Positions 11,374 through 50,079 of a stretch of 64,000 bases of DNA are shown here, piece by piece. Each line of letters opens with the position of its first letter. Position 1 is the first letter of the stretch. The stretch is taken from assembly GCA_942491115.1 (NCBI GenBank), contig CALNZV010000020.1, positions 896,524 through 960,523 on the forward strand. The letters are read 5' to 3'. The notes beneath the pieces are model-generated. The model was not told the DNA's origin and searched no databases. It saw only the letters and a program-made list of their open reading frames with translations. Position numbers and translations under genes: made by a program. The DNA is from an uncultured Desulfobacteraceae bacterium (GTDB lineage: Bacteria; Desulfobacterota; Desulfobacteria; Desulfobacterales; UBA5852).

Positions 11374-11439
11374 CCCCCTCTTCAAAGAGAGCCGCACATG
11401 GCGGAATCGGAAATCAGTGTTGTCACCAGGGACGCCGGG

Positions 11440-27166: not shown

Positions 27167-27182
27167 GGTTCCACCAGGGGGC

Positions 27183-29455: not shown

Positions 29456-29466
29456 CGGTGGCTCCT

Positions 29467-31331: not shown

Positions 31332-32681
31332 CTAGCACCTAAGCATTTCCCAAAGAGGGCCTTTATACCCTTTTTCATAGAGTCGAAGCAAGGTCCGGGC
31401 CGTCTCCTGCCCACCGGATCCGATCACCCAGTTCGGCCGGTCTTTCCCTGCAGCCTCCAGCTGCCGGTGAATCGCCCGGCTGTCGACGAACGGGGAGCGG
31501 TAGAACACCGGCGACAGAAGATCCTGATCGACCGTCACCTGCCCTTCTTTTAGGGCCCGGTCATAGAGTGCGGTATTGGGATAAATCCTCATACCGCAGA
31601 AAAAAAACAGCACACAGTTCCTCAACCCCTGAGCGGTCTCCAGGGTGTCGTCGAGAGTCTCCTGGGTTTCTCCCGGTCCTCCGAGTAGCAGGTAGTGGGC
31701 CACATGGAGACGGGACGCCAGCGCGGACCGATGGGCGTCCAGGGCCTCCTGCCGACGAAAAGGCTTCCCGTAGGCTTCCAGAACCGGGTTGCAGAACGAC
31801 TCGGTCCCGAATTCCACATGGGTCAGGCCAGCGCTCCTCAGCCTTTCGAAATACCGGTCGGGCATCCGGTTCGGAATAAAAAAGGCTCCCCAGGGAATGG
31901 AAAGCCCTGATTTACGGAAGTGTTCTGCAACCGATAGGCTGTGATCGATATCGGCGTTGAAGGCGGAATCGGTGATGAACAGATAGGCGGCCCCCGCCCG
32001 CTGAAGAGCCATGGCCGTATCGGCCACCTCTTCGGGGTCGATGAGCCGCAGCCGACGTCCTTCGATGTGGGGGTAGGTGCAGTAGATGCAGCGAAAACAG
32101 CACCCTCTGTGGGTCTGGAGGTTCAGCATCCCCCCCTTGTTGAGGTAGAAACCCAAATGGGCCGTTTCCGGATCGAACCGACGGTGAAAGGAACGGGTCA
32201 GGGGACGGGGGACATCGACCCCTTCCGAAGCCACCATGACCCCGGTCAGCAGTCGGGGATCCTCACCCTTTTCCAGGGCGTCGACCAGACGGACCAAGCG
32301 CTCTCCTTCCCCCACAATGCCGTAGTCGGCTCCCAGCGCCCCCATCATCTGGGATGGGAAAATGGTAAAGCCGCTGCCACCGAGTACGATCGGAGCCCCA
32401 CTGGCAGCTTTGAGCTCACCGATCATCTTCCGGTAGCCGTCCATGAATCCTTTGGGGTCCTGGGCCTCGGTGTTGTCCACATTCCGGATCGACACACCGA
32501 TCAGGCCGGGATCAAACCCCCGCACCTGGCCACTGAGATCCGCCATGGACGACAGGGTATTCACGTCCATGATCCGGACCTCGTGGCGGTCTCCTATGGC
32601 CCCGGCGACATAATCCAACCCCAGGGGATAGACCGGATAGGGGTCGATGGAAGTGTTTGCGGAAACCAGCAGTATTCTCAT
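31332..32681 (-). CDS. Cobalamin-binding-domain (class B) radical SAM protein
   Basis: The N-terminus MRILLVSANT...PLGLDYVAG is a Rossmann-like B12-binding-type domain, followed by HRGCCFRCIYC (CxxxCxxC). Its ATG overlaps the KS-CLF stop (ATGA). Confidence 0.85.
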   Translation of the reverse strand: MRILLVSANTSIDPYPVYPLGLDYVAGAIGDRHEVRIMDVNTLSSMADLSGQVRGFDPGLIGVSIRNVDNTEAQDPKGFMDGYRKMIGELKAASGAPIVLGGSGFTIFPSQMMGALGADYGIVGEGERLVRLVDALEKGEDPRLLTGVMVASEGVDVPRPLTRSFHRRFDPETAHLGFYLNKGGMLNLQTHRGCCFRCIYCTYPHIEGRRLRLIDPEEVADTAMALQRAGAAYLFITDSAFNADIDHSLSVAEHFRKSGLSIPWGAFFIPNRMPDRYFERLRSAGLTHVEFGTESFCNPVLEAYGKPFRRQEALDAHRSALASRLHVAHYLLLGGPGETQETLDDTLETAQGLRNCVLFFFCGMRIYPNTALYDRALKEGQVTVDQDLLSPVFYRSPFVDSRAIHRQLEAAGKDRPNWVIGSGGQETARTLLRLYEKGYKGPLWEMLRC

Positions 32682-34843
32682 GGGGGAGACACCACGACGG
32701 CAGAGACGACCTGCCCCAGTCCGAGCACGAGAATCGATCCACTGACGGCATTGATTCCAAGCCGAGGCGGCCGGGGTCGGAACGATCGCCGTTTGTCCAC
32801 CAGGGATGCCGCCAATACCGTGGCCACGGCGGATGCGGCGGCATAGTTCCCGGTCAGTTCACGATAGTCGATCCGGTGGTCGCTGTAGCCGGTCAAACGG
32901 GAAAACGCCTTCAGTTGATTCTGGGCGCTGTCGGTTTCTGCCGCCGGGATTCCCGCCAGCAGGAGGCCGAACCGGTTCTTGACCCCTGTCCGCCCTCCCA
33001 GACGCTTCACCAGCTCGTCCACAGAAGGGGGTCCGTCCAGGCCGATCTCGATGTGGACGGTCTCGACCGTCGGGGCCCCGGGGATCGCCTCCCGGGTCAG
33101 TACCAGAGCCCCACCGCCATCCGACGGATCCCCATCGGCGGATACCGACGAGTCGAATAGGGGCGAGAGAACCGGATGGCCTTCGTCGGCGCCGACCACC
33201 AGAACCGCCCCTGCGTCGGGAGCCAACAGCTCGGCGGATAAGAGGGCCTGCTCAAAGGAGTCGTTGCCGCCGGTGAGAGTCAAATTGACCCCCTTCGCAC
33301 CGGTCATCATGGCCACCTGGCCAGCAGGCGCATTGTGCACGGAACCGATAAAATCCGTTGGGCTGGCAAACTGTTCGCCGCTCTCGAAAAGGGCGGTAAG
33401 AAAATCGTGGGTCTCCGACAGCGATCCCCAAGCCGTTCCGGCGAATACCGCTTCGATCGGACCTGGGAAATCGGTGTGTTTGATGGCTTCAGCAGCCAGT
33501 ACCATGGTCATCAGAGATAGCCGTTTGACACGGCGAATGGCTGGGCTTGGCATCATCCTGCCCACCTCAGCGGCCGGGTATCGTCCCCGGCAGGATTTCC
33601 GGAGCCGGATCCGATCAAGGGTTTCAAGGGTCATACCGGCCCCGGTAATGGCAGACCACCCCGCTACCCGAAGCCGACCGTCGTCAGGGGTGTCGATTTT
33701 CCGCCGGTCCGGGTTACTGCGACCAACCACCACGGCCCCGTTGTTTCCTCCGAAACCGAATGCGTTGACGAGGATCTTTTCCGGTCGGATCCGAAGCGGC
33801 GCCGCCAAGGGCTCGACGCCAAGGGCCGGGTCCGGCACCCGGCAGCCGCTGTTGGCGGGGATCACCCCCCGGTCGATGGATAGAGCCGCCATCACCGTTC
33901 CGATGGCACCGGCGGCGGCAAGGCTGTGCCCCGTCGCCCCCTTGACCGAAGAAAACGGAGGCATTCTGTCACCGAAAAGAGAACGCACGGCACCCATCTC
34001 TATGCGGTCGTTGTCGATAGTGCCGGTGCCATGGAGATGAATGGCATCGATGTCCCCGGCCTCAAGACCCGCCCGGTCCAAGGCCAGCCGCATCGCAGAC
34101 AGAGCCCCTTCACCCTCCGGATGGGGTAGGGTCGGATGGAAGGCATCGCAGCTTAAGCCGGCACCCATCAATTCGATCCGATCACAGGCCGCTTCGGAGG
34201 CCTCAAGCAGGCACATGGCCGCCCCTTCCGCCACCGAGAGGCCTCGGCGATCCGCATCCAGCGGCCTGGCACCCAACGGATCGATCAGTTTCAGAGATCT
34301 AAACCCATAGTAGGTCAGGCGGCACAGGGAGTCCACACCTCCGACAAGCACTCGCTTGGCCCGACCGGCTCTCAACAACGCCAGGGCCAGAGCCAGGGCC
34401 GACACCCCGGAGGAGCAGGCTGTGGTTACCGTCAATACCGGTCCGCGGCAGCGGTAGCGCCGGGCCAGGGCGACCGCCACCGTACCCAGCCCGTGCTGGC
34501 TGAAATCGCCGGCGACGCCGTCGCCGAAACGCAGACGGTCCTCGGTCATGTCCATGCCGCCGGTAGTGCTTCCAACGACGATGACATCAGGGGGCTGCAG
34601 GGGGTGCCCCATGGCTTGGTCCGACGCCTGTATGGCCAACTGATGCGCCACCGGCATTCCTGGCTTCAAAAGACCCGGAGGAGCCTCGCCCACTATTAGG
34701 GGGCGATGGGAGGCGGGTTTGAACCGTGTCAGCGGGGCCAATCCGCTTCGACCCAAGGTCAGCGCCTTGACGGTGTCTTCCAGGCCGCAGCCGAGAGCCG
34801 AAACGATGCCCATACCACGAATATAAACGGGAAGAACGGTCAC
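32678..34843 (-). CDS. Fused beta-ketoacyl synthase + chain-length-factor-like domain (KS-CLF)
   Basis: The N-terminal half is a complete KS (TACSSGVSA, HGTGTIDND, GHSLAAAGA, FGFGGNN). The C-terminal half (about 32681-33690) is KS-like without the Cys (TGGNDSFEQAL) and has SVHNAPAG, typical of ApeC-type CLF. GTG start overlaps the ACP stop. Confidence 0.85.
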   Translation of the reverse strand: MTVLPVYIRGMGIVSALGCGLEDTVKALTLGRSGLAPLTRFKPASHRPLIVGEAPPGLLKPGMPVAHQLAIQASDQAMGHPLQPPDVIVVGSTTGGMDMTEDRLRFGDGVAGDFSQHGLGTVAVALARRYRCRGPVLTVTTACSSGVSALALALALLRAGRAKRVLVGGVDSLCRLTYYGFRSLKLIDPLGARPLDADRRGLSVAEGAAMCLLEASEAACDRIELMGAGLSCDAFHPTLPHPEGEGALSAMRLALDRAGLEAGDIDAIHLHGTGTIDNDRIEMGAVRSLFGDRMPPFSSVKGATGHSLAAAGAIGTVMAALSIDRGVIPANSGCRVPDPALGVEPLAAPLRIRPEKILVNAFGFGGNNGAVVVGRSNPDRRKIDTPDDGRLRVAGWSAITGAGMTLETLDRIRLRKSCRGRYPAAEVGRMMPSPAIRRVKRLSLMTMVLAAEAIKHTDFPGPIEAVFAGTAWGSLSETHDFLTALFESGEQFASPTDFIGSVHNAPAGQVAMMTGAKGVNLTLTGGNDSFEQALLSAELLAPDAGAVLVVGADEGHPVLSPLFDSSVSADGDPSDGGGALVLTREAIPGAPTVETVHIEIGLDGPPSVDELVKRLGGRTGVKNRFGLLLAGIPAAETDSAQNQLKAFSRLTGYSDHRIDYRELTGNYAAASAVATVLAASLVDKRRSFRPRPPRLGINAVSGSILVLGLGQVVSAVVVSPP

Positions 34844-35260: not shown

Positions 35261-35716
35261 TTGGAAAAAACCGGTTCCATAGTGACGGATCGAGACCATC
35301 CACCCGATCTGGAAGACCTTCTTCCCCACCGAGGGCCCATGCTTCTGATCGACGATATCCTGGCCGTCGACAGAAACCACGCCGTATCCCAAGCAAGGGT
35401 CAGGGATCGATGGCCGGGATTCGACGGATCGACAGTCAGTCCTCTGCTGATCATCGAATTGGTGGCCCAGACCTCCGGACTCAGCAACGGTCTGGATCGA
35501 ATGCTGACGGAAGGGCCCGCTGCCGACAAGAGGGGGTGGATTGTCGGCGTCAAAGAGGCGCGCTTCTCTGCCGATCGGCTGATCCCGGGGACCCTGATCA
35601 TTACCGAAGCCTCCAACAGTTTCAAATTCGAGGGGTTTAGAGAAATCAGAGGCACCTCCAGAATCGGTACCGATATCATCGGAGAGGTCGTGCTTCAAGT
35701 CATGCGCTCGGGGTAG
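35261..35716 (+). CDS. 3-hydroxyacyl-ACP dehydratase, ApeP-like hotdog
   Basis: N-terminal motif LLPHRGPMLLIDDI. TTG start at 35261, with GTG at 35282 as an alternative. Confidence 0.75.
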   Translation: MEKTGSIVTDRDHPPDLEDLLPHRGPMLLIDDILAVDRNHAVSQARVRDRWPGFDGSTVSPLLIIELVAQTSGLSNGLDRMLTEGPAADKRGWIVGVKEARFSADRLIPGTLIITEASNSFKFEGFREIRGTSRIGTDIIGEVVLQVMRSG

Positions 35717-35815: not shown

Positions 35816-36559
35816 ATGGTCATGGAAGCCTTCACAGATCCCCCCATCGCCCTGGTAACAGGGGCCAGCAAAGGTATCGGCCGGGCCGTCAGTGTCGAGC
35901 TGGCCCGCAGCGGGTACACGGTGGCCGTCAATTACCGTGCCGATGAAGCGGGCGCTCTCGAGACCGTCTCCCTGGTCACGGCACAGGGTGCCCGGGGACA
36001 GGCCGTCGGCTTTGATGTTACCGACCGCCGCGCCGCCACTGACGCCATTTCCACGATTCTCTCGGAGGTCGGCCCCATCGACGTTCTGATCAATAACGCC
36101 GGCATCACCTCGGACGGCCTTTTTGTCATGATGTCCAAGGAGAGCTGGGACCGGGTGATCCGCACCAGTCTGGACGGTTTTTATCATTGTACGAAGCCTG
36201 TTATCGAATCCATGATCCGTCGGAAGCATGGCAGCATCGTCTCCATAGCCTCGGTGGCCGGTCTGGTGGCCAATCGGGGGCAGTCCAACTACTCAGCCGC
36301 CAAGGCGGGGGTCATTGCGGCCAGCCGCTGCCTGGCCGCAGAGGTGGGTCGACTCGGTATCCGGGTAAACGTGGTGGCGCCGGGACTGATCGATACGGAC
36401 ATGATCAAAGACGCGCCGGTGCCTCACATCAAATCCATGATCCCGATGGCCCGTATCGGCCGGCCGGAGGAGGTGGCACGGGTGGTACGCTTTCTGTGCT
36501 CCGAAGATGCCTCCTATGTCACCGGTCAGGTCATCGGTGTTAATGGCGGCATGGCCTGA
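35816..36559 (+). CDS. fabG: 3-oxoacyl-ACP reductase (SDR, FabG-type ketoreductase)
   Basis: TGASKGIGRA cofactor motif, catalytic NYSAAKAG (YxxxK), 247 aa. Confidence 0.9.
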   Translation: MVMEAFTDPPIALVTGASKGIGRAVSVELARSGYTVAVNYRADEAGALETVSLVTAQGARGQAVGFDVTDRRAATDAISTILSEVGPIDVLINNAGITSDGLFVMMSKESWDRVIRTSLDGFYHCTKPVIESMIRRKHGSIVSIASVAGLVANRGQSNYSAAKAGVIAASRCLAAEVGRLGIRVNVVAPGLIDTDMIKDAPVPHIKSMIPMARIGRPEEVARVVRFLCSEDASYVTGQVIGVNGGMA

Positions 36560-36591: not shown

Positions 36592-37209
36592 ATGAAACGC
36601 GCTCAAGACATATGGATGCCATTGGGGGCCTCCGCCATTGCATTCCTACTGCTGGTCGGTTGGGCTGACAGCTTCGAGGCCCTGCGCCGGGAAGGCAATG
36701 CCATCCGGTCGATTAGGGCGGAGTTTACCCAGCAGAAAGAAATGCGGATGCTTGTCCGCCCGATCCTCTCCGAGGGCCGGTTTTTCTTCCAGAAACCCGG
36801 TTCCCTGCGCTGGGAATATACCTCCCCCGTAAAAAGCGTTCTGCTCATGCACGACGGATCGGTTCGGCGATTCTTTCAACAGACGGGCGACTGGACCGAA
36901 GACACGACGGCCGGCCTTCAGGCCATGGACGTTGTCATGGAGGAAATCACCCGATGGCTGAACGGCCGATTTGAAGACAATCCGGTCTTCCTGGCCGAAC
37001 TGGTGCCGGGCCGACTGATACGGCTTAGGCCTAAAAGCGATGCCATGGCAGGCATCATACAAAAAATCGAGCTCATTCTTGCCGACCGGCCCGGCGTTCT
37101 CGAGGAGGTCGTTATCTACGAGAGCGAATCTTCCCTGACGCGATTAATTTTCAGCGGATCACGGGTCAACCTTGCCATCCCGGAATGGGTGTTTAAAACG
37201 GCCCAATGA
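36592..37209 (+). CDS. LolA-like outer-membrane lipoprotein carrier protein
   Basis: Signal peptide followed by FTQQKEMRMLVRPILSEGRFFFQKPGSLRWEY, the LolA-fold signature seen in APE clusters. Confidence 0.8.
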   Translation: MKRAQDIWMPLGASAIAFLLLVGWADSFEALRREGNAIRSIRAEFTQQKEMRMLVRPILSEGRFFFQKPGSLRWEYTSPVKSVLLMHDGSVRRFFQQTGDWTEDTTAGLQAMDVVMEEITRWLNGRFEDNPVFLAELVPGRLIRLRPKSDAMAGIIQKIELILADRPGVLEEVVIYESESSLTRLIFSGSRVNLAIPEWVFKTAQ

Positions 37210-37886
37210 GACGACATCTCACCCTTGCTGCTCTTGCGATACTTTGGGTGGCCTGCGCCCGTCCGCCGGCATCGACGACCTTGCCCGGCGATGGAATTCC
37301 CCCCAGTGACTGCACGGCGGGCTTTCCGCCGGGCCGCTGGCAGGTCAGCCACTCCCTGGTCGTCTCTGCGCCGTTCGGCAACACCGCCCAGCTGATCGGG
37401 GTGTCGCTCGTCGATGGGGAGACCCGCCGTTTGGACTGCGCCCTGATGACCGTCGAAGGCCTGATTTTATTCAGCGGCCGGTACGACGGGCAAGTCGTTG
37501 TGGAACGTGCCCTGCCTCCGATGGATCGGCGTGGATTCGCCGAAGGCCTGATGTCCGACCTGAAGCTCATCTTTTTCCGCCCGTCCGCCCCCCTGATGAG
37601 AGCCGCCAGGACGACAGACGGAAACCGGATCTGCCGATATGGCCGCCCCGGTGATCCCCAGACCGATCTGAAACTCACAGCCGACGGGTGGGAGCTTCGC
37701 CGGTACGGCGAGGCATCCCGTCTGGAGAGGACCATAAAAGCCGTCTATTCGCCGGGCCCACTGCCGTCCCCCGGGGGCCGCTTTGCGGACCGTTTGATCC
37801 TCGAGGCCCATGGTACCGGCGCCTACACCATCGACATGGTCCTTGTGGAAGCCGTTCCCCTGCCCCCGGAGGCGCTCCATCAATGA
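37206..37886 (+). CDS. Lipoprotein, DUF3261-like (APE-cluster-associated)
   Basis: Lipobox LWVAC. ATGA overlap with the LolA-like gene. The family call rests on position and overall pattern only. Confidence 0.6.
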   Translation: MRRHLTLAALAILWVACARPPASTTLPGDGIPPSDCTAGFPPGRWQVSHSLVVSAPFGNTAQLIGVSLVDGETRRLDCALMTVEGLILFSGRYDGQVVVERALPPMDRRGFAEGLMSDLKLIFFRPSAPLMRAARTTDGNRICRYGRPGDPQTDLKLTADGWELRRYGEASRLERTIKAVYSPGPLPSPGGRFADRLILEAHGTGAYTIDMVLVEAVPLPPEALHQ

Positions 37887-37933: not shown

Positions 37934-39238
37934 ATGAAGATCTTGCTTATCTATCCCCGGTGGCCAAAGCTCAGCCGCCAAACCGAGTTTCACCTCCCTC
38001 CCCATGGCCCGGTGGTTTTTGCCGCCGCCCTCCCCGGGGATGTGGAGGTCGAATTCATCGACGAGAATCTGGAAACCGTCGATACCGACGCCGATGTCGA
38101 CCTGGTGGCCATTTCCATGATGCTGACCCTTCAAGTCAAACGGGGGTGGGAGATCGCCGGGGCCTTTCGCCGCCGGGGGGTCAAGGTCATCTTCGGGGGC
38201 ATCGCCACGATGCTCCATGCCGAGGAAACCAAGGCCCATGGGGATGCCATCTTCCTGGGAGAGGCTGAGGGACGCATGGAGGAAGTCATCTCCGATTTCA
38301 GGCGTGGACGGTTGAAAGGCGTCTACGACTACCTCGACAGTCCGCCTCCCATCGAATCGGTGGGGACCGCCAGGCGGGATCTGCTGAAGCGGAACCTGTA
38401 CAACTACAAAGGCGTTCAGATGGTGGATCTTGTCCACGCGTCGAGGGGCTGCCGCTACAACTGCTACCCCTGTTGCGTGGCCTTTCTGGGGGGGCGACAG
38501 TTCAGGCCGCGGCCGGTACACAAGGCGGTGGCTGAAATGGCGGCCATCGACAACAACCGCCTGTTCATCGTGGACAACTCACTGGCCCAGGACACCCAGT
38601 GGGAAAAAGATCTCTTCAAGGCCATGATCCCGTTGAAGAAGCATTGGTGCAGCCACCCCATCGAAGACCGTTCCGACATCCTTGACCTGGCCGCCCAGGC
38701 GGGGGCCTGGTATGTCTATCAGGCCGTGTTCGACACTTCCGATCATATTCGGGAGCGCATCCGGCGCTACCATGACCACGGCATCGGCGTGGAGGGAACC
38801 ATTCTTCTTGGACTGGACGACCAGACCGAAGACGATATTCTACGCCTGGTGGATTTTCTGCAGGAGATCGAGCTCGATCTGGCGGAATTCACGGTGCTCA
38901 CTCCGTTTCCCCACACCCAGGCATACAGGGATCTCAACGGGCAGAACCGGATATTCTCCACCGACTGGAACGACTACTCCGCAGAGAAGGTGGTCTTCCA
39001 GCCCAAACACATGTCCCCAGGCCGGCTCCAGGAGCTGCTGGCCTATGCCTGGGACAGCTTCTACCGAGATGAACCCCAGGAAATCAAGATGTTCAAGCTA
39101 CTCCAGCGGGTGGTGGCGAAGGAAAAGGCCCAGGACACCTTCCGTCCTCGCAACCGGGATCTCGCCGGGATGGCCTTCGGCCGAAACACGGCCGGAGACG
39201 TGCCGGATGACCCCGAGGACCGTCAGTCCAGATCCTGA
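37934..39238 (+). CDS. Cobalamin-binding-domain (class B) radical SAM protein
   Basis: MKILLIYPRWP... is a B12-type N-terminal domain, followed by SRGCRYNCYPC (CxxxCxxC). It is the last gene of the plus-strand operon. Confidence 0.85.
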   Translation: MKILLIYPRWPKLSRQTEFHLPPHGPVVFAAALPGDVEVEFIDENLETVDTDADVDLVAISMMLTLQVKRGWEIAGAFRRRGVKVIFGGIATMLHAEETKAHGDAIFLGEAEGRMEEVISDFRRGRLKGVYDYLDSPPPIESVGTARRDLLKRNLYNYKGVQMVDLVHASRGCRYNCYPCCVAFLGGRQFRPRPVHKAVAEMAAIDNNRLFIVDNSLAQDTQWEKDLFKAMIPLKKHWCSHPIEDRSDILDLAAQAGAWYVYQAVFDTSDHIRERIRRYHDHGIGVEGTILLGLDDQTEDDILRLVDFLQEIELDLAEFTVLTPFPHTQAYRDLNGQNRIFSTDWNDYSAEKVVFQPKHMSPGRLQELLAYAWDSFYRDEPQEIKMFKLLQRVVAKEKAQDTFRPRNRDLAGMAFGRNTAGDVPDDPEDRQSRS

Positions 39239-40707
39239 AACCGGTTGACCCCTCTCTGGCGGGCCATGTCCAGCTCATAGCGCCCCCTCCACCCGAGGGC
39301 TTTCAGTTTCCGTCCGAGCACGATCTTCAGAAATGGTTTGAACGCATAGAGCCAGATTCCCGTCCACATCCGCCCCTGCTCACGAACCCGGGGCGACGGC
39401 TCCCACCACCCCATGGTTACCTGGCGATGGTACCAAACCAGGTACTGAAGGGTGTCGGTGTCCATCTGACGGGTTCTCACGTTGGCCCAGATGCCGTTGT
39501 ACCATCGGTAGTCGTCAGGGTTGGACACCAGCCCCTCGTCCATCAGGTGCTGACGGATGCCGGTTTTGGGATAGGGGGTGAGAATCTGGCAGTAGGCGGT
39601 ATCCGCCCCCGAGGACTTGAGGAAGCGGTAGTTTTCGACGATCTCCTCCTCTCCGTCATCCGGGAACCCGAAGATCATCCCCCCCACCACCATGATTCCG
39701 TATCGATGGCAGGTATCGATGGCCTTTCGGGACGCCGCCACGATATCCCCCTTTTTCGCAGTCTTGAGGTTCTTCTTGGAGACATTTTCGATACCCAGAA
39801 AGATCGTCTTAAAGCCGGCCTTGGCCATCAGTCGAACCATATCCTCGTTGGCGGCCATGGTCACGCAGTCCGCCTGAACCACGAAATGCAGGTTCCGGTA
39901 GCCACGGGCGATGATGGCGTCGCACAGGGCCATCACCCGATCGGGCGAAAGGACCAGATTGTCGTCGGAAACGAAGATCCACCGGCAGTGTCGCCGGTAG
40001 TAGATATCGTCGATATCCGCCAGCACCCTGTCGATGGGAAAAGGTCTGAAGGAGCGGCCGTACATGTGGCGAATGCTGCAGAAATTGCAGTTTCGCGTAC
40101 ATCCCCGGGAGGTCTCCATCACCTCCACCTTGCTGTTCATGATGTGATAGCCCCAGGTCAGCCGCCGCTTGTCACGGATGGGGATCTTCAACCGCGACAG
40201 ATCCAGGAGCTCCCCCCGGGGGTTGTGACGGAACCCTCCGTCGGTTCGATAGGACAGGGATGGAATGGCCTCCAGACGGTCCCGGTCCTCCAGAGCATTC
40301 ACCAGCCGTCGAAAGGTGTCTTCGCCCTCTCCACGGATCATGAAATCGATGCCCTCCGTCCCGTCGGAGTCGCCGATTTCCTCGTACATCAGGGTGGCAT
40401 GGTAGCCACCAAGGGCAATCTTGACCCGTGGCAGAAGGTCCTTGATGAGCCGGGTCAGCTTGATGCAGGTGTCAAACTGCCAGGTCATGGACGACAGCCC
40501 GACCAGGTCCGGCTGAATTCTGGTGAGAACCCGGGTGAGGTAGCGCCGAACCGAGCGACGGGTGCGGATCAGGTCGATCAGACGGACATCGTGATCACCG
40601 TCGATGTTGGCGCCGATGCTGGCGATCCCCAGGTTGGGCATGTGGAAGGCGGCCTCGTGCATGATCACAGGCGCTACATCCGGCATGGATATCAGGACTA
40701 TCTTCAT
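39223..40707 (-). CDS. Cobalamin-binding-domain (class B) radical SAM protein
   Basis: MKIVLISMPD...NLGIASIGA is a B12-type N-terminal domain, followed by SRGCTRNCNFC (CxxxCxxC). The 3' end overlaps the convergent B12-rSAM gene by 16 bp. Confidence 0.85.
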   Translation of the reverse strand: MKIVLISMPDVAPVIMHEAAFHMPNLGIASIGANIDGDHDVRLIDLIRTRRSVRRYLTRVLTRIQPDLVGLSSMTWQFDTCIKLTRLIKDLLPRVKIALGGYHATLMYEEIGDSDGTEGIDFMIRGEGEDTFRRLVNALEDRDRLEAIPSLSYRTDGGFRHNPRGELLDLSRLKIPIRDKRRLTWGYHIMNSKVEVMETSRGCTRNCNFCSIRHMYGRSFRPFPIDRVLADIDDIYYRRHCRWIFVSDDNLVLSPDRVMALCDAIIARGYRNLHFVVQADCVTMAANEDMVRLMAKAGFKTIFLGIENVSKKNLKTAKKGDIVAASRKAIDTCHRYGIMVVGGMIFGFPDDGEEEIVENYRFLKSSGADTAYCQILTPYPKTGIRQHLMDEGLVSNPDDYRWYNGIWANVRTRQMDTDTLQYLVWYHRQVTMGWWEPSPRVREQGRMWTGIWLYAFKPFLKIVLGRKLKALGWRGRYELDMARQRGVNRFQDLD

Positions 40708-40766: not shown

Positions 40767-41570
40767 TCAATGCCTCAGATGGGCTTCTAGGCGACGGCGA
40801 ACATCGGCCATGAGAGAACCGACCCCGACGGCTATGCCGTCGATCTCCGTGGGGATGTCCGCCACCAGTTCAACGGTGACGGTATTGGCCCGGCAAGTGT
40901 TGAACAAAAACTTGCCGGGCTGGAAAAGGGTTTCCGATCCTTGGACGGCCACCACTTTGATCGGCACCCTCATCCTTTTGGCAAGGGTGAATACGCCTCT
41001 TCGAAACCGCCCCATCCCACCGTCTTTGCTGCGGGTTCCTTCAGGGAAAACGATTAAATTGCCCCCCCCTGCCAGAAGGCTATCCAGGCGGCTTAGGCCA
41101 TCGATCATCACCCCCCCGTGGCGGCTGTTGGCCTGGGAAGGGATATAGCCGGACAGGGCAAGCATGGTGCCAAAGACCGGAATATCGAACAACCTCGCCT
41201 TGGCAATAGTGGTGTGCTTCTCAAATAAAGAAATCAATAAGATCGGATCAATATAAGAGACGTGGTTGCTCACGACGATGGAGGAGCGGATGTGACGGAC
41301 GTCATCGGCGATCTCCCAGTGCTGGAGGGGCGCCAGCCATTTCAGCAGCCGGAAGAAACCTTTGTAGAACCGGTGGTTCAGCCGCTGGAATGCCTCACGG
41401 CGATCGGCGGAGAAAAGGGCTGCCAAAAAATATCTCGGGGCAAAGAACCCCACGAACCCGATGGTAAAATACCCCCATAGGCAGAGGGTGATCGCAAGGT
41501 CTTTCAGCCGCTCGGCCCGGGTGGCCCCGCGCGGTGAAGCGCCCCTTCCGGTGGTCGACCGGCTGCTCAT
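40767..41570 (-). CDS. Lysophospholipid (1-acyl-sn-glycerol-3-phosphate, PlsC-type) acyltransferase
   Basis: Catalytic block NHVSYIDP (HxxxxD) and FPEGTRS. N-terminal TM segment. Confidence 0.85.
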   Translation of the reverse strand: MSSRSTTGRGASPRGATRAERLKDLAITLCLWGYFTIGFVGFFAPRYFLAALFSADRREAFQRLNHRFYKGFFRLLKWLAPLQHWEIADDVRHIRSSIVVSNHVSYIDPILLISLFEKHTTIAKARLFDIPVFGTMLALSGYIPSQANSRHGGVMIDGLSRLDSLLAGGGNLIVFPEGTRSKDGGMGRFRRGVFTLAKRMRVPIKVVAVQGSETLFQPGKFLFNTCRANTVTVELVADIPTEIDGIAVGVGSLMADVRRRLEAHLRH

Positions 41571-42808
41571 GGGTCTTCAGGCCTCGTCAGAAACAAGCAG
41601 GTGTTGACCCCGCCGAATGCAAAGTTCTGCACCGCGGCCGTCCCGATGGGGCTCGATTCCAGGCCGGCGGTGTGTCGGATACCGCTGCAGCGAGGGTCGA
41701 CCTCATCCAGATTCAGTGTCGGAGCGATGAATCCTTCCGCCATCATATGAAGCGTCATGATGGATTCGATGACGCCGCAGGCCCCCATGGTATGGCCCAT
41801 ATAGCTTTTGAGGCCGCTCACCGCCGGTGATTTTCCATAGATCCGTTCGATGGCCTGGGCCTCCATGACGTCCCCGGTCTTGGTGGCGGTGGCGTGAGCG
41901 CTGATGAAATCCACCTGCCCGGGGTCTAGCCCCGCGCTGTCAAGCCCGGTCTGGATGGCGCGCACGATGCCGTCGATATTGGGAAGGATCAGGTCTCCGC
42001 CGTTGTTGGTGCAGGAGAACCCGACAACCTCACCCAAAATACGTGCCCCCCGGCTTTTGGCGGATTCGTGGGATTCCAGAAGCACGGCCCCGGCGCCCTC
42101 CCCCACCACAAGCCCGTCCCGTCGGCGGTCAAAGGGGCGGGGGGTTTTTTCAGGCGTATCGTTGTAGTCCGTCGAACAGGCCAGAAGATTGTCGAATACC
42201 GCCACGGTGGTGGTATCATATTCATCCGCTCCTCCGCAGAGCATGGCATCCTGAAGGCCGTATTTGACCGCTTCGTATCCGAACCCAATGGACTGGCTGC
42301 TCGTGGTGCAGGCTGTCGAGGAGGAAATCACCCGACCCGTAATTCCAAACATCTTGGCGATGTTGACCGCCGTCGTGTGCACCATGGACTTAAGATAGTC
42401 TACGGCGCCGATATGGCTCAACTTGTTGCCGTCGTCACTGAAAAAGGTCCGGTAGATGTCCCGTTGCACCGTGGGGCTGCCGTGGGTGGAGCCAAAGGCC
42501 ACCCCGAGCCGGCCCGACCGGATGAAATCCTCCGACACGCCAGACTGCATCAAGGTTTCCTTTGCCACGTGGCAGGCATAAAAGGCCACCGGTCCCATGG
42601 TCTTCCGATCCCGCCGGAGAAAATCGAAATCCGGTGGCTCGGCCACGGTGCCGAAAACCCCGGAGTGGATGTGGCGGGTCAGCAGATCATCGTCCCGAAT
42701 ACGGCGAACCCCGGAGCGGCCCGAACGGAGGCTGTCCACGATGGTCTCCCGGGTGCAACCGATCGGGGTGATGGCCGAACAGCCGGTGATTACAACCCGA
42801 TTATCCAT
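41567..42808 (-). CDS. Beta-ketoacyl-ACP synthase (KS), catalytically complete
   Basis: Active-site Cys (STACTTSSQ), His (SAHATATKTGD) and His (MGHTMGACG). ATG at 42808 (MDNRVVITG...), with an alternative ATG at 42832. Confidence 0.9.
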   Translation of the reverse strand: MDNRVVITGCSAITPIGCTRETIVDSLRSGRSGVRRIRDDDLLTRHIHSGVFGTVAEPPDFDFLRRDRKTMGPVAFYACHVAKETLMQSGVSEDFIRSGRLGVAFGSTHGSPTVQRDIYRTFFSDDGNKLSHIGAVDYLKSMVHTTAVNIAKMFGITGRVISSSTACTTSSQSIGFGYEAVKYGLQDAMLCGGADEYDTTTVAVFDNLLACSTDYNDTPEKTPRPFDRRRDGLVVGEGAGAVLLESHESAKSRGARILGEVVGFSCTNNGGDLILPNIDGIVRAIQTGLDSAGLDPGQVDFISAHATATKTGDVMEAQAIERIYGKSPAVSGLKSYMGHTMGACGVIESIMTLHMMAEGFIAPTLNLDEVDPRCSGIRHTAGLESSPIGTAAVQNFAFGGVNTCLFLTRPEDP

Positions 42809-42856
42809 CAAACGGCCCTTTCGCCCATCCATTGGAAAACGCCGGCGATTCGGATC

Positions 42857-43120
42857 TCAGTCATCGGTTGCCCTTTTTGTAACGAGGTTGTCCACGTAAT
42901 CGACGATCTGTCGGATGGTGCGGATATCCATCGCGGCCTTCTTTTCGTCACGGGTCAGTTCAGAATCGAGGAGCACTTCGATTTCCCGCAGCAGTTCGAT
43001 GGCATCGATGCTGTCAAACTCATGGGCATCCCTGAGATCATCGTCAGCCCCCGGATCGACGATTTCGAATTGATCGGCGAAGATCGTAAGGATTGCAGAG
43101 TGAATTTTCGATTTCGTCAT
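42857..43120 (-). CDS. Acyl carrier protein
   Basis: 87 aa from ATG at 43120 (RBS GAGGG) with Ser motif EFDSIDAIELL. Confidence 0.85.
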   Translation of the reverse strand: MTKSKIHSAILTIFADQFEIVDPGADDDLRDAHEFDSIDAIELLREIEVLLDSELTRDEKKAAMDIRTIRQIVDYVDNLVTKRATDD

Positions 43121-43216
43121 TACCCTCGACCCTTTGGAACAGCGTTGAATGAAAAGCGGTATCATACAACAATTCCCGATTAACGGCAAAAGCCCCCCCT
43201 TCGAACCACCATACTT

Positions 43217-44101
43217 TCAGGGGTCAGGGGACAGAAAGGGCTGGAAATGAAACCAGTCGAAAGGGTAGACCCTCAGGGCGGCCTCCAGGTGGTCGGTGTA
43301 GATCTGGGCGGCCTCTTGAATCGCCTGACCTCTGCAGCGCCGGTCCGACACCGTCAAATGGATCGGTTCGTGGGCGACAAGCCGATAGTCCCGGTTCCCC
43401 TGCCGAAAGGCGAAAAAGACCACGATGGGCACACGGGACGCCGAGGCCAGCAGAAAGGGGGATTCCGGCAGTTCCACCCGCCGGCCGAACATGGTGGCGG
43501 CTACCGTTCGCTGGCCGCGTTTCCAGACCCGATCGCCTGCCATGGAGACCAGCCCCCCCGATTTGAGAAACCGGATCCCCTCCACGATGTCGAAGGGAGA
43601 CCCGCCACCCTCCTCTACCCCCACAACACGGACTCCCGCGCCCGCAAGCCCTTTCTTCTGGAGGGCTTCGATTTCATCGGTTTGACGAGTGCCCATGTAA
43701 AGCAGTAGACGGAGGCCCGGAAGCCGTCGCTGCAGCAAGTGGGCCGCCATCTCCCAGTTGCCCATGTGGGACATGAGCAATATCCCCCCATTGCCGGAAT
43801 CGATCACCGCCTCCAGGTAATGGGCGCCATCGATGGAATACCGGATGCCCTCCCCATGGTCCATTAGGGTCCGGTCCAGAAACACGTATGTAAAGTGACG
43901 AAATTGCCGCCAGGAGCAGCGAAGGTGATGCCATCGTCCGGTCCCTGGAAACAGGACGGCATAGAAGGCTGTACTGGATCGTCTCACTTTCGGCCGCATT
44001 ATAAAATAGCCGGCGGCAATACCGGCAGCCACCAGGGAAAACAAACCGCTTCCAAACCGATTGGACGCAAGAACAAGAAGCCGATAAAATCTTTCAATCA
44101 T
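43217..44101 (-). CDS. LpxL/HtrB-family (lipid A lauroyl-type) acyltransferase
   Basis: N-terminal TM segment and catalytic block LLMSHMGNWE (HxxxxE/D). ~294 aa, as expected for LpxL-like enzymes of APE clusters. Confidence 0.8.
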   Translation of the reverse strand: MIERFYRLLVLASNRFGSGLFSLVAAGIAAGYFIMRPKVRRSSTAFYAVLFPGTGRWHHLRCSWRQFRHFTYVFLDRTLMDHGEGIRYSIDGAHYLEAVIDSGNGGILLMSHMGNWEMAAHLLQRRLPGLRLLLYMGTRQTDEIEALQKKGLAGAGVRVVGVEEGGGSPFDIVEGIRFLKSGGLVSMAGDRVWKRGQRTVAATMFGRRVELPESPFLLASASRVPIVVFFAFRQGNRDYRLVAHEPIHLTVSDRRCRGQAIQEAAQIYTDHLEAALRVYPFDWFHFQPFLSPDP

Positions 44102-44847
44102 TTGCTCGACCGTTGGCCTTTATATCGATCTGTGATCCTCCACAGTGGTGGCGAGACCACCCGACGGGTAATCAGGCGGGCAAATGTTCCGGTATTCCTG
44201 AAAAAATCAGGAATCGGACGAAAATGTGAAATCCGGGACCCGGATCGACTGTAACGCACCGACACCGGCACCTCGATTATGGGAAGGCCGGCCCAGGCGG
44301 CCTTGGCCAAGACCTCCACTTCGAATTGATATCGCCGAGCCTCGACCTTCAGGGTCAAGACCTCGGGCAGTGGATACACCCGCATCCCCGTCTGGGTGTC
44401 GTGGAGATAGACCCCACCGGACACCCACACCCAGAAATTGGAAAACGCCCGGCCCGAGCGACTGGTCCACGGTGCGGTCTCCATTCCTTTACGACAACCA
44501 ATCACGATGGCCTTTCCGGAGGCGGGCACTGCGGACATAAGGGCTCCGATATCGGTCGGATCGTGCTGACCGTCAGCATCCAGGGTGACGACCCAATCCA
44601 CTCTGTTCCCCAGGTGGCGAAATCCCGACAACAAGGCGGCCCCTTTGCCCCGGTTGCAGGGATGACGCAGGATCTCTATGTTGGAAATCGATCGGAGCCG
44701 TTTGCACGTATCGTCTGTGGACCCGTCGTCGACGACCACAACGGGCGCCTGCCAGGCGAGGGTTTTTTGAGCGATGTCGGCGACGGTCCCCCCATGGTTG
44801 TAAGCCGGAATAACGACGGCGAAGGGAGGATGGGGGCTTGGGCTCAT
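44098..44847 (-). CDS. Glycosyltransferase family 2
   Basis: VVIPAYNHG...VVVDDGSTDDT and a DAD (DxD) block LDADGQHDP. The ATG overlaps the upstream stop (ATGA at 44844-44847). Confidence 0.88.
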   Translation of the reverse strand: MSPSPHPPFAVVIPAYNHGGTVADIAQKTLAWQAPVVVVDDGSTDDTCKRLRSISNIEILRHPCNRGKGAALLSGFRHLGNRVDWVVTLDADGQHDPTDIGALMSAVPASGKAIVIGCRKGMETAPWTSRSGRAFSNFWVWVSGGVYLHDTQTGMRVYPLPEVLTLKVEARRYQFEVEVLAKAAWAGLPIIEVPVSVRYSRSGSRISHFRPIPDFFRNTGTFARLITRRVVSPPLWRITDRYKGQRSSK

Positions 44848-46580
44848 GGGGGGTGATCTCCAGGAGATGGACGGGCCGGCAAGTAGGCAACGGCCCAGGT
44901 GCCGGGCCCCATGTGGGCCCCGGAAGTCGACGACATGGGTTCGATCCAACCCACCGTGGCGCCGAGACGGGCTTCGATTGCCGGCTTAGCCACCGTTTCG
45001 ACCCAGTCGCGGTTATCCGTGTAGGCCAGAAGAATATGGACCGGACCCGTTTCGGGAAAGGCCGCCGCCATGGTGTCGAGGGCGAAGCGGACCTGGGCGC
45101 TTCGGCTTTTAACCGCACCCGCCTTTTCGGCCCCCCTGGCTGTGGGTCGAATCACCGGTTTGTAGCGGATGAAGTCACCGACCATCCCCCGGACCTTGGA
45201 TATTCGGCCGCCGGCAGCCAGAAATTTTAGCTGATCCAGAAACACCAGTTCATCACACTGTTCCGCCCGGGCCGCTGCGAAGGCGGCCACCGCTTCCAGA
45301 CCATGCCCTTCGGCGGCAAACCGGGAGACGTCTATTGCCAAAAGCCCCAGTTTGCCGGAGGCGGCCGCCGTATCGATCACCGCCATGCGGGCCCTGCACC
45401 GGTGGTCGCGAACCCACTTTCTGGCAATCTGGCAATTGCCGGTGAAGGCGGATCCCACCGCCAAATAGACCACTCGTTCATAGCGATCCACGAGCCGCTC
45501 GTAATGCTGATGCCGTTCAAATGTCGACGCCTGGGCCGTGGACACCTTCTCCCCTTGGGCCATGGCGTCGTAGAGAGCGTCGGGTTGAACCAAGCTTTCA
45601 GGAATGACCCGGTCATCGAAGACGAGATAGCTGTCCAGCAGAGAAATGCCCATCCGCCGGGCCGTATCGGGGCTGAGAGATCCAGCGGCATCGGTGACCA
45701 CATGAACCCCCGGGGACGAAATGGGCGGCGGCAGTGGGCTCGGCGGCAGATGGATTTCCTCTGGCTGCCAACGGAGAAGGGTTCCCAGTTCAGCCAGATG
45801 CCGGCGGGTGTCATCGATACGATCGACGTGGAGATGGACTTTTAGCAGTCGGTCATCGGATTGGGTCACCACACTGTTTCCCAGTCCGGCAACGATTCCG
45901 GCGGCATTGTCGACACCGTCGTTCAGCCGAATGGCGGCGTCGACACAATAGGCGTTAGACCTCCCCCTGTCCCCGGATGCCACCACATCCAGCAATCCGT
46001 TGAAAAGGGCCATCGGTGTCGGAAAGGTGAGTTTCCCACCCACCAGGCAGATCAGAAAACCTTCGAAAAACAAATACATGCCTAGTGCACCGGCATCCAC
46101 GACCCCTGCCGTCGTCAGAGCCGACAGCTGGTCTCGGGTTCGGATGACCGTCTCTTTGAGATGGGCGATCACCTCGGTTGCAGCCTCCGGCCCCATGGGC
46201 TGGGAGCGCTTGTCCAAGGCATCCGACAGGGCGTCGAAAACGGATAGCATCGTCCCCTGCTGGGGAGCGGCCAGGGCATCCCAGGCTGCCCTGGCCCCTT
46301 CGGCAGCGGGTAGCCCCAGCCGGCCAGGATCATCGACAGCCGTAAAGCGGGAAAAAAAGGCCGCAGCGATATTACCGGCATTGCCGGTGGCCGAAATGAG
46401 AAGCCGCCGGTCCAGGTCCGGCTTGGCCCCGATCGTCGTGAGAGGGGCCAGACTCGCGCGAAGGTTGCGGCCCGTATCCGCGTCGGCCACCGGGAAGACA
46501 TTGATGGTGTCGAGGAGTTCGCTCCAGGCGGCCATCCGCTCATAGCCGGTTGAAAACGCCTCTGCCAGGGGCGCTTTCAT
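44844..46580 (-). CDS. DAK2 (DhaL-like) domain fused to a DegV fatty-acid-binding domain
   Basis: The N-terminal INVFPVADADTGRN is a Dak2-type nucleotide-binding motif. The C-terminal ~280 aa is DegV-like (VHVVTDAAGSL...STAQAS...GSAFTGN...VIDTAAASG...GAHMGPGTWAV). The ATG at 46580 shares 1 nt with the thioesterase stop. Confidence 0.8.
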   Translation of the reverse strand: MKAPLAEAFSTGYERMAAWSELLDTINVFPVADADTGRNLRASLAPLTTIGAKPDLDRRLLISATGNAGNIAAAFFSRFTAVDDPGRLGLPAAEGARAAWDALAAPQQGTMLSVFDALSDALDKRSQPMGPEAATEVIAHLKETVIRTRDQLSALTTAGVVDAGALGMYLFFEGFLICLVGGKLTFPTPMALFNGLLDVVASGDRGRSNAYCVDAAIRLNDGVDNAAGIVAGLGNSVVTQSDDRLLKVHLHVDRIDDTRRHLAELGTLLRWQPEEIHLPPSPLPPPISSPGVHVVTDAAGSLSPDTARRMGISLLDSYLVFDDRVIPESLVQPDALYDAMAQGEKVSTAQASTFERHQHYERLVDRYERVVYLAVGSAFTGNCQIARKWVRDHRCRARMAVIDTAAASGKLGLLAIDVSRFAAEGHGLEAVAAFAAARAEQCDELVFLDQLKFLAAGGRISKVRGMVGDFIRYKPVIRPTARGAEKAGAVKSRSAQVRFALDTMAAAFPETGPVHILLAYTDNRDWVETVAKPAIEARLGATVGWIEPMSSTSGAHMGPGTWAVAYLPARPSPGDHPP

Positions 46581-46990
46581 TAATCGCAACCCAAGGCCGT
46601 CTGAATCTCCGGAGGAATCTCGAAGTCGAGGACCATATCCGGAAGCTTGACAGCCACCTGCTCGCTGGTGGCCCGGGTGCAAATCTCGCCGTCGGGCATT
46701 CGGCGGATCTCAAAAGCCATGGCAATCTTGTAACGCGCTTCGGTAACGGTGGCCTTGCAGACAAAATCGTCTCGAGGCCCCAAAGCGGCGATGTGTTTGC
46801 AGGAGGTTCGGGTGATCGGAAATACGACCTGCTTTTCATGGAGATAGCGGAACAGGTCGATGCCAGCCGCCTCGAAGAGAGCAAAACGGGTTTCGTCAAA
46901 ATAGGAGGCGTAGTTGCCGTGCCAGACCACCCGCATGGGGTCGAGATGGTGGAAGGGAACTTTGAAGGATTTTTCGTAACTGAAGGCCAT
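46580..46990 (-). CDS. Hotdog-fold acyl thioesterase (4HBT/YbgC-like)
   Basis: 136 aa with HHLDPMRVVWHGNYASYFDETR, as in 4HBT-type thioesterases. It is the first gene of the right-hand minus-strand operon. Confidence 0.8.
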   Translation of the reverse strand: MAFSYEKSFKVPFHHLDPMRVVWHGNYASYFDETRFALFEAAGIDLFRYLHEKQVVFPITRTSCKHIAALGPRDDFVCKATVTEARYKIAMAFEIRRMPDGEICTRATSEQVAVKLPDMVLDFEIPPEIQTALGCD

Positions 46991-47221
46991 CGTCGGTCTC
47001 ACTGATCGAGTCATCGCTTGGGGCGGTGGGTGGAATAGACCTGTTTGTTCTGCAGACGTCCCCAGGGGACCCTCCAACCGCCCCTGCCGGCACCGGCCTG
47101 TGCCCGGAGTCCGGAAAGGGTTGGACCCGGCGTTGCCTGGGCCGCCAACCGGGAGCAGGCTGGGAAGTGGGAATCGATCAGTCCGGGCATCAGGGGTCGG
47201 AATGCCTACCGTCGCCAGGAG

Positions 47222-47905
47222 TCAGGGTCGGCCATCGGAAGCGTCGCCGGTTAAAACCAGCACAATGAGCTCTTTAGGTCCATGAACGCCGAAGGCCAGG
47301 GTCATCTCGATATCCGCTGTCTTTGACGGGCCTGAAACGAGTATTGCGTTGGTGGGCATGTGGTCGGCCCAGTCTCGCTCTTGGATAAGTTCACAGAAAC
47401 TGTTGTAAATGGTTTCGGCTTTCACCAGGGCAATGTGAATCGGAGGCACCAGGGACATGGTTCTGGGCTCATTTTCGTCTGGCCAGAGAACGATGGCGCC
47501 GGTTTCGGCAATGGCTCCGATGGTGGTGGTGATCGCTGCATCGATCTCGAAAAGGGTGTCCTTAACCCTTTCGATGGGGTCGGTAAATGGGATTCGATCG
47601 GGCAAATTCGGGTCTCCGGCTTCCCAGGCATCCTTCAGGGAATCGACGATCCAAGTCCCCTCACCGTAGAGAAGGGATTTGACGCCCCGTTTGGCAAGAA
47701 TGGATTTCAACAGGCCGACCCACTCCCCTTCGCCCACCACGTGAACCTCGCTCCGGATGGCCTCCATGCAGGTTTTCAAGCGCTCGATCCGATCGTTTAC
47801 CGACAGGGAAGCAATGGGCATGCAGACAGAGGCCGGCTCGGGGGGGGAGGATCCCAATGACCGGCGCAGGCGTTTCAGTATCTTCTCACGGGATGGGCTA
47901 CTCAC
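47222..47905 (-). CDS. lutC: Lactate utilization protein C (LUD domain, LutC/YkgG)
   Basis: 227 aa LUD-domain pattern. Its start overlaps the lutB stop, and it is the third gene of lutABC. Confidence 0.85.
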   Translation of the reverse strand: MSSPSREKILKRLRRSLGSSPPEPASVCMPIASLSVNDRIERLKTCMEAIRSEVHVVGEGEWVGLLKSILAKRGVKSLLYGEGTWIVDSLKDAWEAGDPNLPDRIPFTDPIERVKDTLFEIDAAITTTIGAIAETGAIVLWPDENEPRTMSLVPPIHIALVKAETIYNSFCELIQERDWADHMPTNAILVSGPSKTADIEMTLAFGVHGPKELIVLVLTGDASDGRP

Positions 47906-49328: not shown

Positions 49329-50079
49329 GGGTTCGCTCCCAGATAAAATCGGCAATGTGCTGCCCCCTCACCGGAATTTTCCGGTACTCGAGAGCCCCTG
49401 TAATGTTCATGAGACAGCCGCAGTCCCCGGAGATGACTCGTCTGGCACCGGTCAATCGGATGTCGGCAATCTTGTCCGTCACCATGGCGGCCGAGATGGC
49501 GGGCTGTTTTACGGAAAAGGTCCCTCCGAATCCGCAGCATTCATCCTCACGCTCCAACTCGATGAGCTCAACCCGGTCGAGCTGGCGGATCAAGGATTTG
49601 GAGTCTTCGGTAACCTTCATTTCCCGCTTGGCATGGCAGGAGGAGTGCCAGGTCACCGATATCGGCCGCCCCCGATCTTTCAGCCTCGCCTTCATGATGT
49701 GCACCATGAACTCCGTCCACTCGAAAACCCGTCCGGCAAATCGACGGGCTTCGTCCCACTCGGGCTGGCCAGCAAAGAGATACGGGTAGTGGTGCTTCAT
49801 CATGCCGGCACAGGATCCCGAGGGCACAATCAGGGGATAGTTCTTGTCGAATACGGCCATCTGTTTTCGGGCCACCTGGCGGGCCTCATCCGGGAATCCC
49901 GAATTGTAGGCGGGCTGACCGCAGCAAGACTGGCCGGGAGGGAAAACCACGTCGACCCCTTCGGCCTTCAGGAGCCGGATGGCTGCCATGCCGGCATCCG
50001 GAAACATAGAGTCAACCAAGCAGGTACCAAAAAAATACACTCTGTCGGGTTTGGGGGGATAGGGTTGATTGGCATTCAT
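49321..50079 (-). CDS. lutA: Lactate utilization protein A, (Fe-S)-binding CCG-domain oxidoreductase LutA/YkgE
   Basis: VYFFGTCLVD...GQSCCGQPAYNSG and a second CCG block ECCGFGG. ATG at 50079. Confidence 0.9.
   Translation of the reverse strand: MNANQPYPPKPDRVYFFGTCLVDSMFPDAGMAAIRLLKAEGVDVVFPPGQSCCGQPAYNSGFPDEARQVARKQMAVFDKNYPLIVPSGSCAGMMKHHYPYLFAGQPEWDEARRFAGRVFEWTEFMVHIMKARLKDRGRPISVTWHSSCHAKREMKVTEDSKSLIRQLDRVELIELEREDECCGFGGTFSVKQPAISAAMVTDKIADIRLTGARRVISGDCGCLMNITGALEYRKIPVRGQHIADFIWERTHA

Follow-up and report, generated by a model that had tools for sequence, protein, structure and literature searches.

The window analyzed here is a stretch of 64,000 nt from contig CALNZV010000020.1 of an uncultured Desulfobacteraceae bacterium. 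According to Pfam and NCBIfam scans, it contains a lipid cluster of three modules, which spans about 15.5 to 47 kb. Inside this cluster, two convergent genes coding for radical S-adenosylmethionine (SAM) proteins, designated A and B, meet tail to tail and share their last 16 bp. The features of the junction are as follows:

37934–39238, + strand: gene A, open reading frame (ORF) of 434 aa, radical SAM protein whose N-terminal domain is Rossmann/B12-like, last gene of module 2
38450–38473, + strand: CxxxCxxC motif CRYNCYPC of A (residues 173–180), presumed ligands of the [4Fe-4S]/SAM cluster
39185–39238, + strand: non-conserved tail of A after the conserved FGR motif, residues 418–434 (NTAGDVPDDPEDRQSRS) plus the stop codon
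39223–39238, both strands: tail-to-tail overlap of A and B, 16 bp shared
39223–40707, − strand: gene B, ORF of 494 aa, cobalamin-domain (class B type) radical SAM protein, last gene of module 3
40078–40101, − strand: CxxxCxxC motif CTRNCNFC of B (residues 203–210), cysteines invariant

The coordinates and lengths of both ORFs, the two cysteine motifs and the position of the overlap had been given in a first-pass annotation of this DNA, and all of them were reproduced exactly. The 3′ end of A reads CGT CAG TCC AGA TCC TGA, and that of B, on the opposite strand, TTT CAG GAT CTG GAC TGA. Since both ends are set by stop codons, the overlap is independent of the choice of start codons. In total, 6325 database homologues were found for A, the 120 best of which are 74–88% identical to it (an identical database copy apart), and an alignment of 23 homologues shows C173, C177 and C180 without variation. 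For B, 2404 homologues were found, the best of them 70–94% identical and most covering 100% of the query; in 22 homologues, C203, C207 and C210 do not vary, and the C-terminal residues N488, F490 and L493 are invariant among the homologues as well. Judged by sequence comparison, A and B are both real genes.

A scan of one genome per species revealed 547 loci with a relative of A, of which the best 80 were analyzed; together with four metagenome contigs, these 80 genome loci make up the set in which the overlap and the tail of A were compared. Two alleles of A coexist in the window's own cluster of proteins that are at least 90% identical. The 434-aa allele, with the 16-bp overlap, is found in the window and in the JGI metagenome contig L081 (JGI 3300040801); contig L083 and a second JGI contig (sample 3300042731) carry the 424-aa allele, in which A and B are separated by 14 bp. 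In L082, another close relative, A is cut at the contig start, and its short tail and 14-bp gap are as in L083. The DNA alignment places the TAA stop of L082 at the codon where L081 reads GAA; the aligned position of this early stop, codon 425 of A (39206–39208), is GAT in the window and TAA in close relatives. The downstream sequence ATCCTGAAACCGG is common to all of the aligned contigs. It supplies the TGA that terminates the long allele of A, and on the opposite strand it encodes the conserved C-terminus of B, NRFQDL[D/G].

A and B are also adjacent and convergent in eight other genomes, where the distances between them are −11, 17, 24, 40, 67, 93, 110 and 174 bp. The only overlap among these eight, in locus L018, goes with a longer B (504 aa) and not with a longer A. 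Thus, the overlap is present in three of the 13 contigs with this gene order (the window, L081 and L018) and the others have gaps of 14–174 bp; these 13 comprise the window, L081, L082, L083, the JGI contig of sample 3300042731 and the eight genome loci, and among them the overlap is not conserved. Among the genomes, the nearest is L001, a Desulfobacterales metagenome-assembled genome (MAG), whose A and B are 81% and 79% identical to those of the window.

The tail of A in the window is the longest seen, and close relatives stop 10 codons earlier, as might be expected if a sequencing or assembly error had erased the true stop codon of A. The first-pass annotation had named an artefactual stop codon as a finding that would remove the overlap. 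An independent assembly, L081, has the same 434-aa frame and the same 16-bp overlap despite a nucleotide difference of 12% (88% identity over 5 kb), and an NCBI entry identical to the A protein of the window exists as well. An artefact is thus extremely improbable, and the independent frame and overlap of L081 led us to reject it.

The conserved sequence of A stops at the FGR motif. Beyond it, the window has 17 residues, compared with 1–10 in 22 aligned homologues and 2–12 in 77 genome loci. Although protein A as a whole is 92% identical between the window and L081, only five of the 17 tail residues are shared, and the composition of the tail shifts from acidic and proline-rich in the window to glycine- and serine-rich in L081. 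In the AlphaFold model of A, residues 411–434 have pLDDT values below 50. Because the extra tail is unconserved and modeled with low confidence, it is probably without function. The opposite proposal, that the extended acidic tail DVPDDPEDRQSRS serves, for instance, as a docking peptide for an acyl carrier protein (ACP) or a partner enzyme, and that the overlap is the price of this tail, could draw on the length of 434 aa being held in two lineages. Nevertheless, it is very unlikely, considering how little of the tail these two lineages have in common, the shift in its composition, its very low modeling confidence and its absence from all other homologues examined.

Based on these comparisons, the reading that we favor, with a probability of about 0.8, is that the overlap is a neutral by-product of stop-codon movement and has not been kept by selection, since it appears to stem from the movement of a stop codon, lies in unconstrained sequence and is polymorphic. 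A and B end two convergent modules of a conserved lipid cluster of Desulfobacterota, and the spacer between them in this lineage is only 14 bp long. With the early in-frame stop codon of A absent, translation crosses the spacer and continues for another 10 codons, up to a TGA located opposite the conserved last codons of B (...RFQDLD and stop). With no intergenic terminator, the two transcripts would probably end inside each other's 3′ coding regions, either by the action of Rho or at weak signals.

According to the literature, 75 convergent overlapping gene pairs are present in Escherichia coli K-12, so there is nothing unusual in a short convergent overlap as such; the formation of such overlaps needs movement of a stop codon, and they are common (PMC4161906). 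The A/B pair resembles these bacterial tail-to-tail overlaps in being a short overlap of two 3′ ends that would have been made by stop-codon movement. Nothing distinctive sets it apart, except that the event can be dated to within one cluster of proteins at least 90% identical. The overlap is therefore of little importance: it appears to be a textbook case of stop-codon movement, caught while still polymorphic.

Several points weigh against this reading. The overlap persists in two lineages (the window and L081) that are 12% apart in nucleotides, so it is not removed at once and may be mildly tolerated or even useful, and real antisense interference between the two genes may occur. Whether the stop codon was lost or gained was inferred from a handful of sequences and without a rooted tree. 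Moreover, the enzyme functions proposed below for A and B are drawn solely from family resemblance and gene context.

The signals available for transcription termination at the junction were also considered. The first-pass annotation had stated that no terminator can sit between the two genes, and a distance of −16 or +14 bp indeed leaves no intergenic room in this lineage. A pattern scan for intrinsic terminators returned 16 sites against 11.0 ± 3.3 expected, a total near that of shuffled sequence. The two terminator-like sites nearest to the junction (39285–39299 on the + strand and 39033–39015 on the − strand) have weak stems of 5–6 bp, and the stem sequence on the + strand differs in L081, as judged by eye. 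Folding of 39200–39340 (+ strand, z −0.12) and 39100–39260 (− strand, z −0.31) gave no structure over the shuffled background. Intrinsic terminators hidden in the coding 3′ ends were therefore rejected, given the weak stems and the background-level counts and folds. As there is no intergenic terminator at the junction, read-through of each transcript into the 3′ end of the other gene is plausible.

Among the relatives with longer spacers, a small stem precedes a U-run in L002, and L012 has a hairpin with a z-score of −2.3. The 174-bp A–B spacer of L017, a Desulfobacteraceae MAG, contains a nearly perfect hairpin of 150 nt (11276–11425; −77.4 kcal/mol, z −8.5), which could be either a bidirectional terminator or a palindromic repeat element.

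It had been suggested that the overlapping convergent transcription couples the expression of the two operons through antisense effects. As a selected regulatory device, the overlap would couple or limit both modules by transcriptional interference or antisense RNA, and it would fit a junction that has neither space for a terminator nor a stable hairpin, in a lineage whose spacers are all very short (−16 or +14 bp), unlike the longer-spacer relatives L002, L012 and L017 with their terminator-like hairpins. The comparative data give this proposal no support. A single codon toggles the overlap among relatives that are at least 90% identical, the overlap is mostly absent from the other genomes, where the distances range from −11 to 174 bp, and elsewhere module 3 is inverted or devoid of B. 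In addition, the tail sequence drifts freely, and the overlap adds nothing specific, because read-through would apply equally to the allele with the 14-bp gap. Selection for such a device is thus unlikely, and the overlap is better read as a neutral by-product of stop-codon movement.

Protein A could not be assigned to a characterized family. Its scores for the Pfam domains B12-binding (PF02310; 29.1 bits against a cut-off of 32.1) and Radical_SAM (PF04055; 17.9 bits against a gathering cut-off of 29.5) are both below threshold, and it is not a member of TIGR04072 (38.8 bits, cut-off 360), of the BchE family TIGR02026 (45.1 bits, cut-off 481.35) or of the AprD4 family NF033070 (30.1 bits, cut-off 500). 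A profile of 23 homologues of A, searched against the PDB, matched AprD4 only (E-value, 2.8 × 10−6). Foldseek analysis of the model of A likewise gave AprD4 as the best hit (PDB 6fd2; E-value, 2.4 × 10−13; TMq, 0.59), followed by MgmA and TsrM, and the fold model also matches MiaB among the radical SAM structures. The model itself is of moderate confidence (mean pLDDT, 68), with a poorly modeled cluster-binding loop.

AprD4, a radical SAM 1,2-diol dehydratase, shares with A the two-domain layout, in which a Rossmann-like domain at the N-terminus is combined with a radical SAM core. However, the aligned identity is only 16–17%, the substrate of AprD4 is an aminoglycoside, and no aminoglycoside context was found around A. 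Despite its Rossmann-like domain, AprD4 does not bind cobalamin (PMC12931638). Since both Pfam domains of A score below threshold and its closest solved relative is cobalamin-free, the label "B12-type" or class B is not yet justified for A, and its status as a class B enzyme is unproven.

In a library clustered at 50% identity, family A is represented by one full-length sequence at 75% identity and one at 53%, the next being at no more than 38%, so that at this level the family amounts to essentially one cluster. Members that are 74–81% identical occur in different orders of Desulfobacterota and also in a gammaproteobacterium of the purple sulfur type. From its sequences, family A is an unusually tight and uncharacterized one, a very strongly conserved core enzyme. 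By analogy with AprD4, whose architecture it shares, A may be a core radical SAM enzyme that acts on an acyl intermediate supplied by the adjacent dehydratase and ketoreductase. A more specific proposal, that this uncharacterized family carries out a cobalamin-free radical dehydration or rearrangement of a hydroxyacyl intermediate from the same two enzymes, is doubtful. If it were true, the reaction of A, on a fatty-acyl (ketoacyl) lipid, would be new to radical SAM enzymes, and the overlap would still be incidental. The residual interest of the locus thus lies in the enzymology of family A and not in the overlap.

The domains of protein B identify it clearly as a radical SAM protein of class B type, with a cobalamin domain: its scores for B12-binding (76.4 bits, cut-off 32.1) and Radical_SAM (66.5 bits, cut-off 29.5) both pass. 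The earlier description of both proteins as B12-type therefore holds for B and is unproven for A, whose two domains are sub-threshold and whose nearest relative is AprD4. The best NCBIfam match of B is BchE (TIGR02026), at 171.5 bits far under the cut-off of 481.35, and B aligns in full length to BchE (residues 15–474) and to HpnR (132 bits, cut-off 650). The scores against TIGR04072 (89.2 bits, cut-off 360) and the AprD4 family NF033070 (50.5 bits, cut-off 500) exclude membership in these families too. Sequence matches of B in the PDB include MgmA (9ccb), TokK and OxsB. No bch gene context surrounds B, the neighbors of which are lipid and ACP genes.

With both of its Pfam domains above cut-off, B resembles the class B enzymes BchE, HpnR, MgmA/QCMT, TokK and OxsB, but it differs from them in scoring under the curated cut-off of every family, so that it represents a distinct, uncharacterized subfamily. 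It is probably cobalamin-dependent, of the methylase or cyclase type, and, by analogy and gene context, may have an accessory role in modifying the acyl or lipid product of the ACP–ketosynthase (KS)–PlsC/LpxL module. An Rfam scan of the whole 64,000-nt window found no family at gathering score, and hence no cobalamin riboswitch, a result that is uninformative on the use of cobalamin.

A third radical SAM protein with a Rossmann domain, designated C (449 aa), is encoded in module 1. It belongs to TIGR04072 (rSAM_ladder_B12; 399.5 bits against a cut-off of 360), and its Pfam B12-binding and Radical_SAM domains are both over cut-off. A pairwise comparison of the three, which the first-pass annotation had proposed, showed clearly different proteins: A and B are 25% identical over about 370 residues (E-value, 6 × 10−20), A and C 25% over 151 residues (E-value, 3 × 10−5), and B and C 22% over 391 residues (E-value, 2 × 10−9). 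By this measure, A, B and C are mutually distant paralogues, one per module. The idea that each operon delivers its own class B radical SAM enzyme is thus borne out as far as three distant Rossmann-domain proteins in three modules are concerned; the class B assignment is right for B and C and unproven for A. That they stand for three distinct radical steps is in keeping with the differences among them, but the cluster contains six radical SAM genes with a CxxxCxxC motif, and the steps are probably more than three.

Loci from the 80 genomes, searched by tblastn with all of the cluster proteins, keep the order FabZ, ketoreductase, LolA, lipoprotein and A in most cases. Modules 1 and 2 form an almost invariant divergent pair, with A closing module 2. 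Module 3 is conserved as a block, but its orientation relative to A is variable: in Desulfobacterales-type genomes it is convergent to A, as in the window, whereas in Desulfobulbales-type genomes and in Thiorhodococcus it is co-directional. That A and B are neighbors simply reflects the tail-to-tail placement of the two modules. L022, L049, L056, L064 and L073 have no B at the PlsC end of module 3, and B is therefore, as far as synteny can tell, an accessory gene that travels with PlsC and not with A. The co-directional order is A, AMP-ligase, Dak2-DegV and onward to PlsC, then B where present, then a radical SAM gene with a SPASM domain. In the Desulfobulbales-type loci, the AMP-ligase gene precedes Dak2-DegV and the SPASM gene follows B, so that these two genes flank module 3; the cluster has thus been rearranged in the genome of the window.

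One of the loci without B at the PlsC end, L022, belongs to the purple sulfur gammaproteobacterium Thiorhodococcus mannitoliphagus DSM 18266 (NZ_JAAIJR010000035.1); it has modules 1–3 and an A that is 76% identical to the Desulfobacterota-type protein, which suggests horizontal transfer of the cluster.

The cluster combines KS/chain length factor (CLF), ACP, a FabZ/ApeP-like dehydratase, a ketoreductase, LolA-like and MMPL proteins with LpxL and PlsC acyltransferases, a GT2 glycosyltransferase, a thioesterase, tandem radical SAM proteins and a TIGR04072 protein. It is thus of the already described ladderane-type/aryl-polyene-like extended type II fatty acid synthase (FAS II) type, and the product of the Desulfobacterota clusters is uncharacterized. 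Synteny of this extended FAS II cluster was first noted between Kuenenia stuttgartiensis and Desulfotalea psychrophila, and no ladderanes were found in D. psychrophila (Rattray et al. 2009, PMC2649909). Biosynthetic gene clusters of Desulfobacterota called as "ladderane" by antiSMASH are expressed but functionally uncharacterized (PMC9902471), and in a 2026 review, what radical SAM enzymes do in such pathways is still a matter of hypothesis (PMC13459092). In the literature searched, neither a characterized function for these Desulfobacterota clusters nor a link to 10-methylhexadecanoic acid was found.

The Kuenenia and Desulfotalea clusters share with that of the window FabF-like KS genes in multiple copies and dedicated ACPs, together with a FabZ-like dehydratase, two radical SAM genes of the non-B12 kind in tandem, a TIGR04072 protein, a gene resembling polysaccharide deacetylases, a SAM methyltransferase domain and acyltransferases. 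The difference concerns A and B, which are not members of TIGR04072 and are not mentioned in the passages of PMC2649909 and PMC9902471 that were consulted.

The analysis yields a clearer map of a lipid cluster that is widespread in Desulfobacterota and has an uncharacterized product: three modules, consisting of a fixed divergent core and one module either inverted or co-directional, with six radical SAM genes, among which B is an optional add-on at the PlsC end and A a core enzyme whose need for cobalamin should not be assumed. Such a map is useful for the choice of targets for knock-out or heterologous expression in "ladderane-like" clusters outside anammox bacteria.

The neighbors listed in the first-pass annotation, dehydratase–ketoreductase–LolA–lipoprotein before A and thioesterase/Dak2-DegV/GT2/LpxL/ACP/KS/PlsC before B, were confirmed. 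The genes of modules 2 and 3 are:

35261–35716, + strand: FabZ/ApeP-like dehydratase, module 2 (a close homologue carries PF22817, ApeP-like)
35816–36559, + strand: ketoreductase, module 2 (Pfam/NCBIfam)
36592–37209, + strand: LolA2 (flexirubin)-like protein, module 2 (Pfam/NCBIfam)
37206–37886, + strand: putative lipoprotein, module 2 (no family match)
40767–41570, − strand: PlsC-type acyltransferase, module 3 (family scans, as for the rest of this module)
41567–42832, − strand: KS, module 3
42857–43189, − strand: ACP, module 3
43217–44101, − strand: LpxL-like acyltransferase, module 3
44098–44949, − strand: GT2, module 3
44844–46682, − strand: Dak2-DegV fusion, module 3
46580–47077, − strand: 4HBT thioesterase, module 3

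The Dak2-DegV protein (612 aa) consists of Dak2, a FakA-like middle domain and DegV. By its domains, it resembles a fusion of the FakA and FakB components of fatty-acid kinase and may load exogenous or free fatty acid.

Module 1, on the − strand, also includes a small dehydratase-like ORF, an ACP and two KS genes. Further upstream, the cluster contains genes for an AMP-ligase, a SPASM radical SAM protein, a polysaccharide deacetylase, an esterase and an MMPL-methyltransferase fusion. The located features outside modules 2 and 3 are:

32678–34843, − strand: KS-CLF fusion, module 1 (family scans)
31332–32681, − strand: radical SAM protein C, module 1
28457–30591, − strand: tandem non-B12 radical SAM ORFs, module 1 (motifs CNLRCKGC and CNIRCDGC)
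15544–17049: AMP-ligase, adjoining the SPASM radical SAM gene
17093–18220, + strand: SPASM-domain radical SAM protein, beside the AMP-ligase

The tandem radical SAM ORFs overlap by 82 bp as listed, and the first of them is the most conserved cluster protein across the genomes (77–87% identity). The two ORFs probably correspond to Kuste3343/3342 and DP1855/1853 of PMC2649909. The two KS ORFs of module 1 (25901–27400 and 27183–28433, − strand) share 218 bp as listed; in the downstream one, at 25901–27400, the KS domain begins only at residue 85, and the true start of this ORF therefore probably lies further downstream. The ORF at 20145–23270 (− strand, 1041 aa) is an unusual fusion, in which MMPL/sterol-sensing transporter regions are combined with a C-terminal SAM-dependent methyltransferase domain (residues ~845–1007). 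At the other side of the cluster, a lutABC-type lactate-utilization operon (47222–50130, − strand), coding for a CCG-domain protein, a LutB/LldF iron-sulfur protein and a LUD-domain protein, abuts the thioesterase end of the lipid cluster and marks that boundary.

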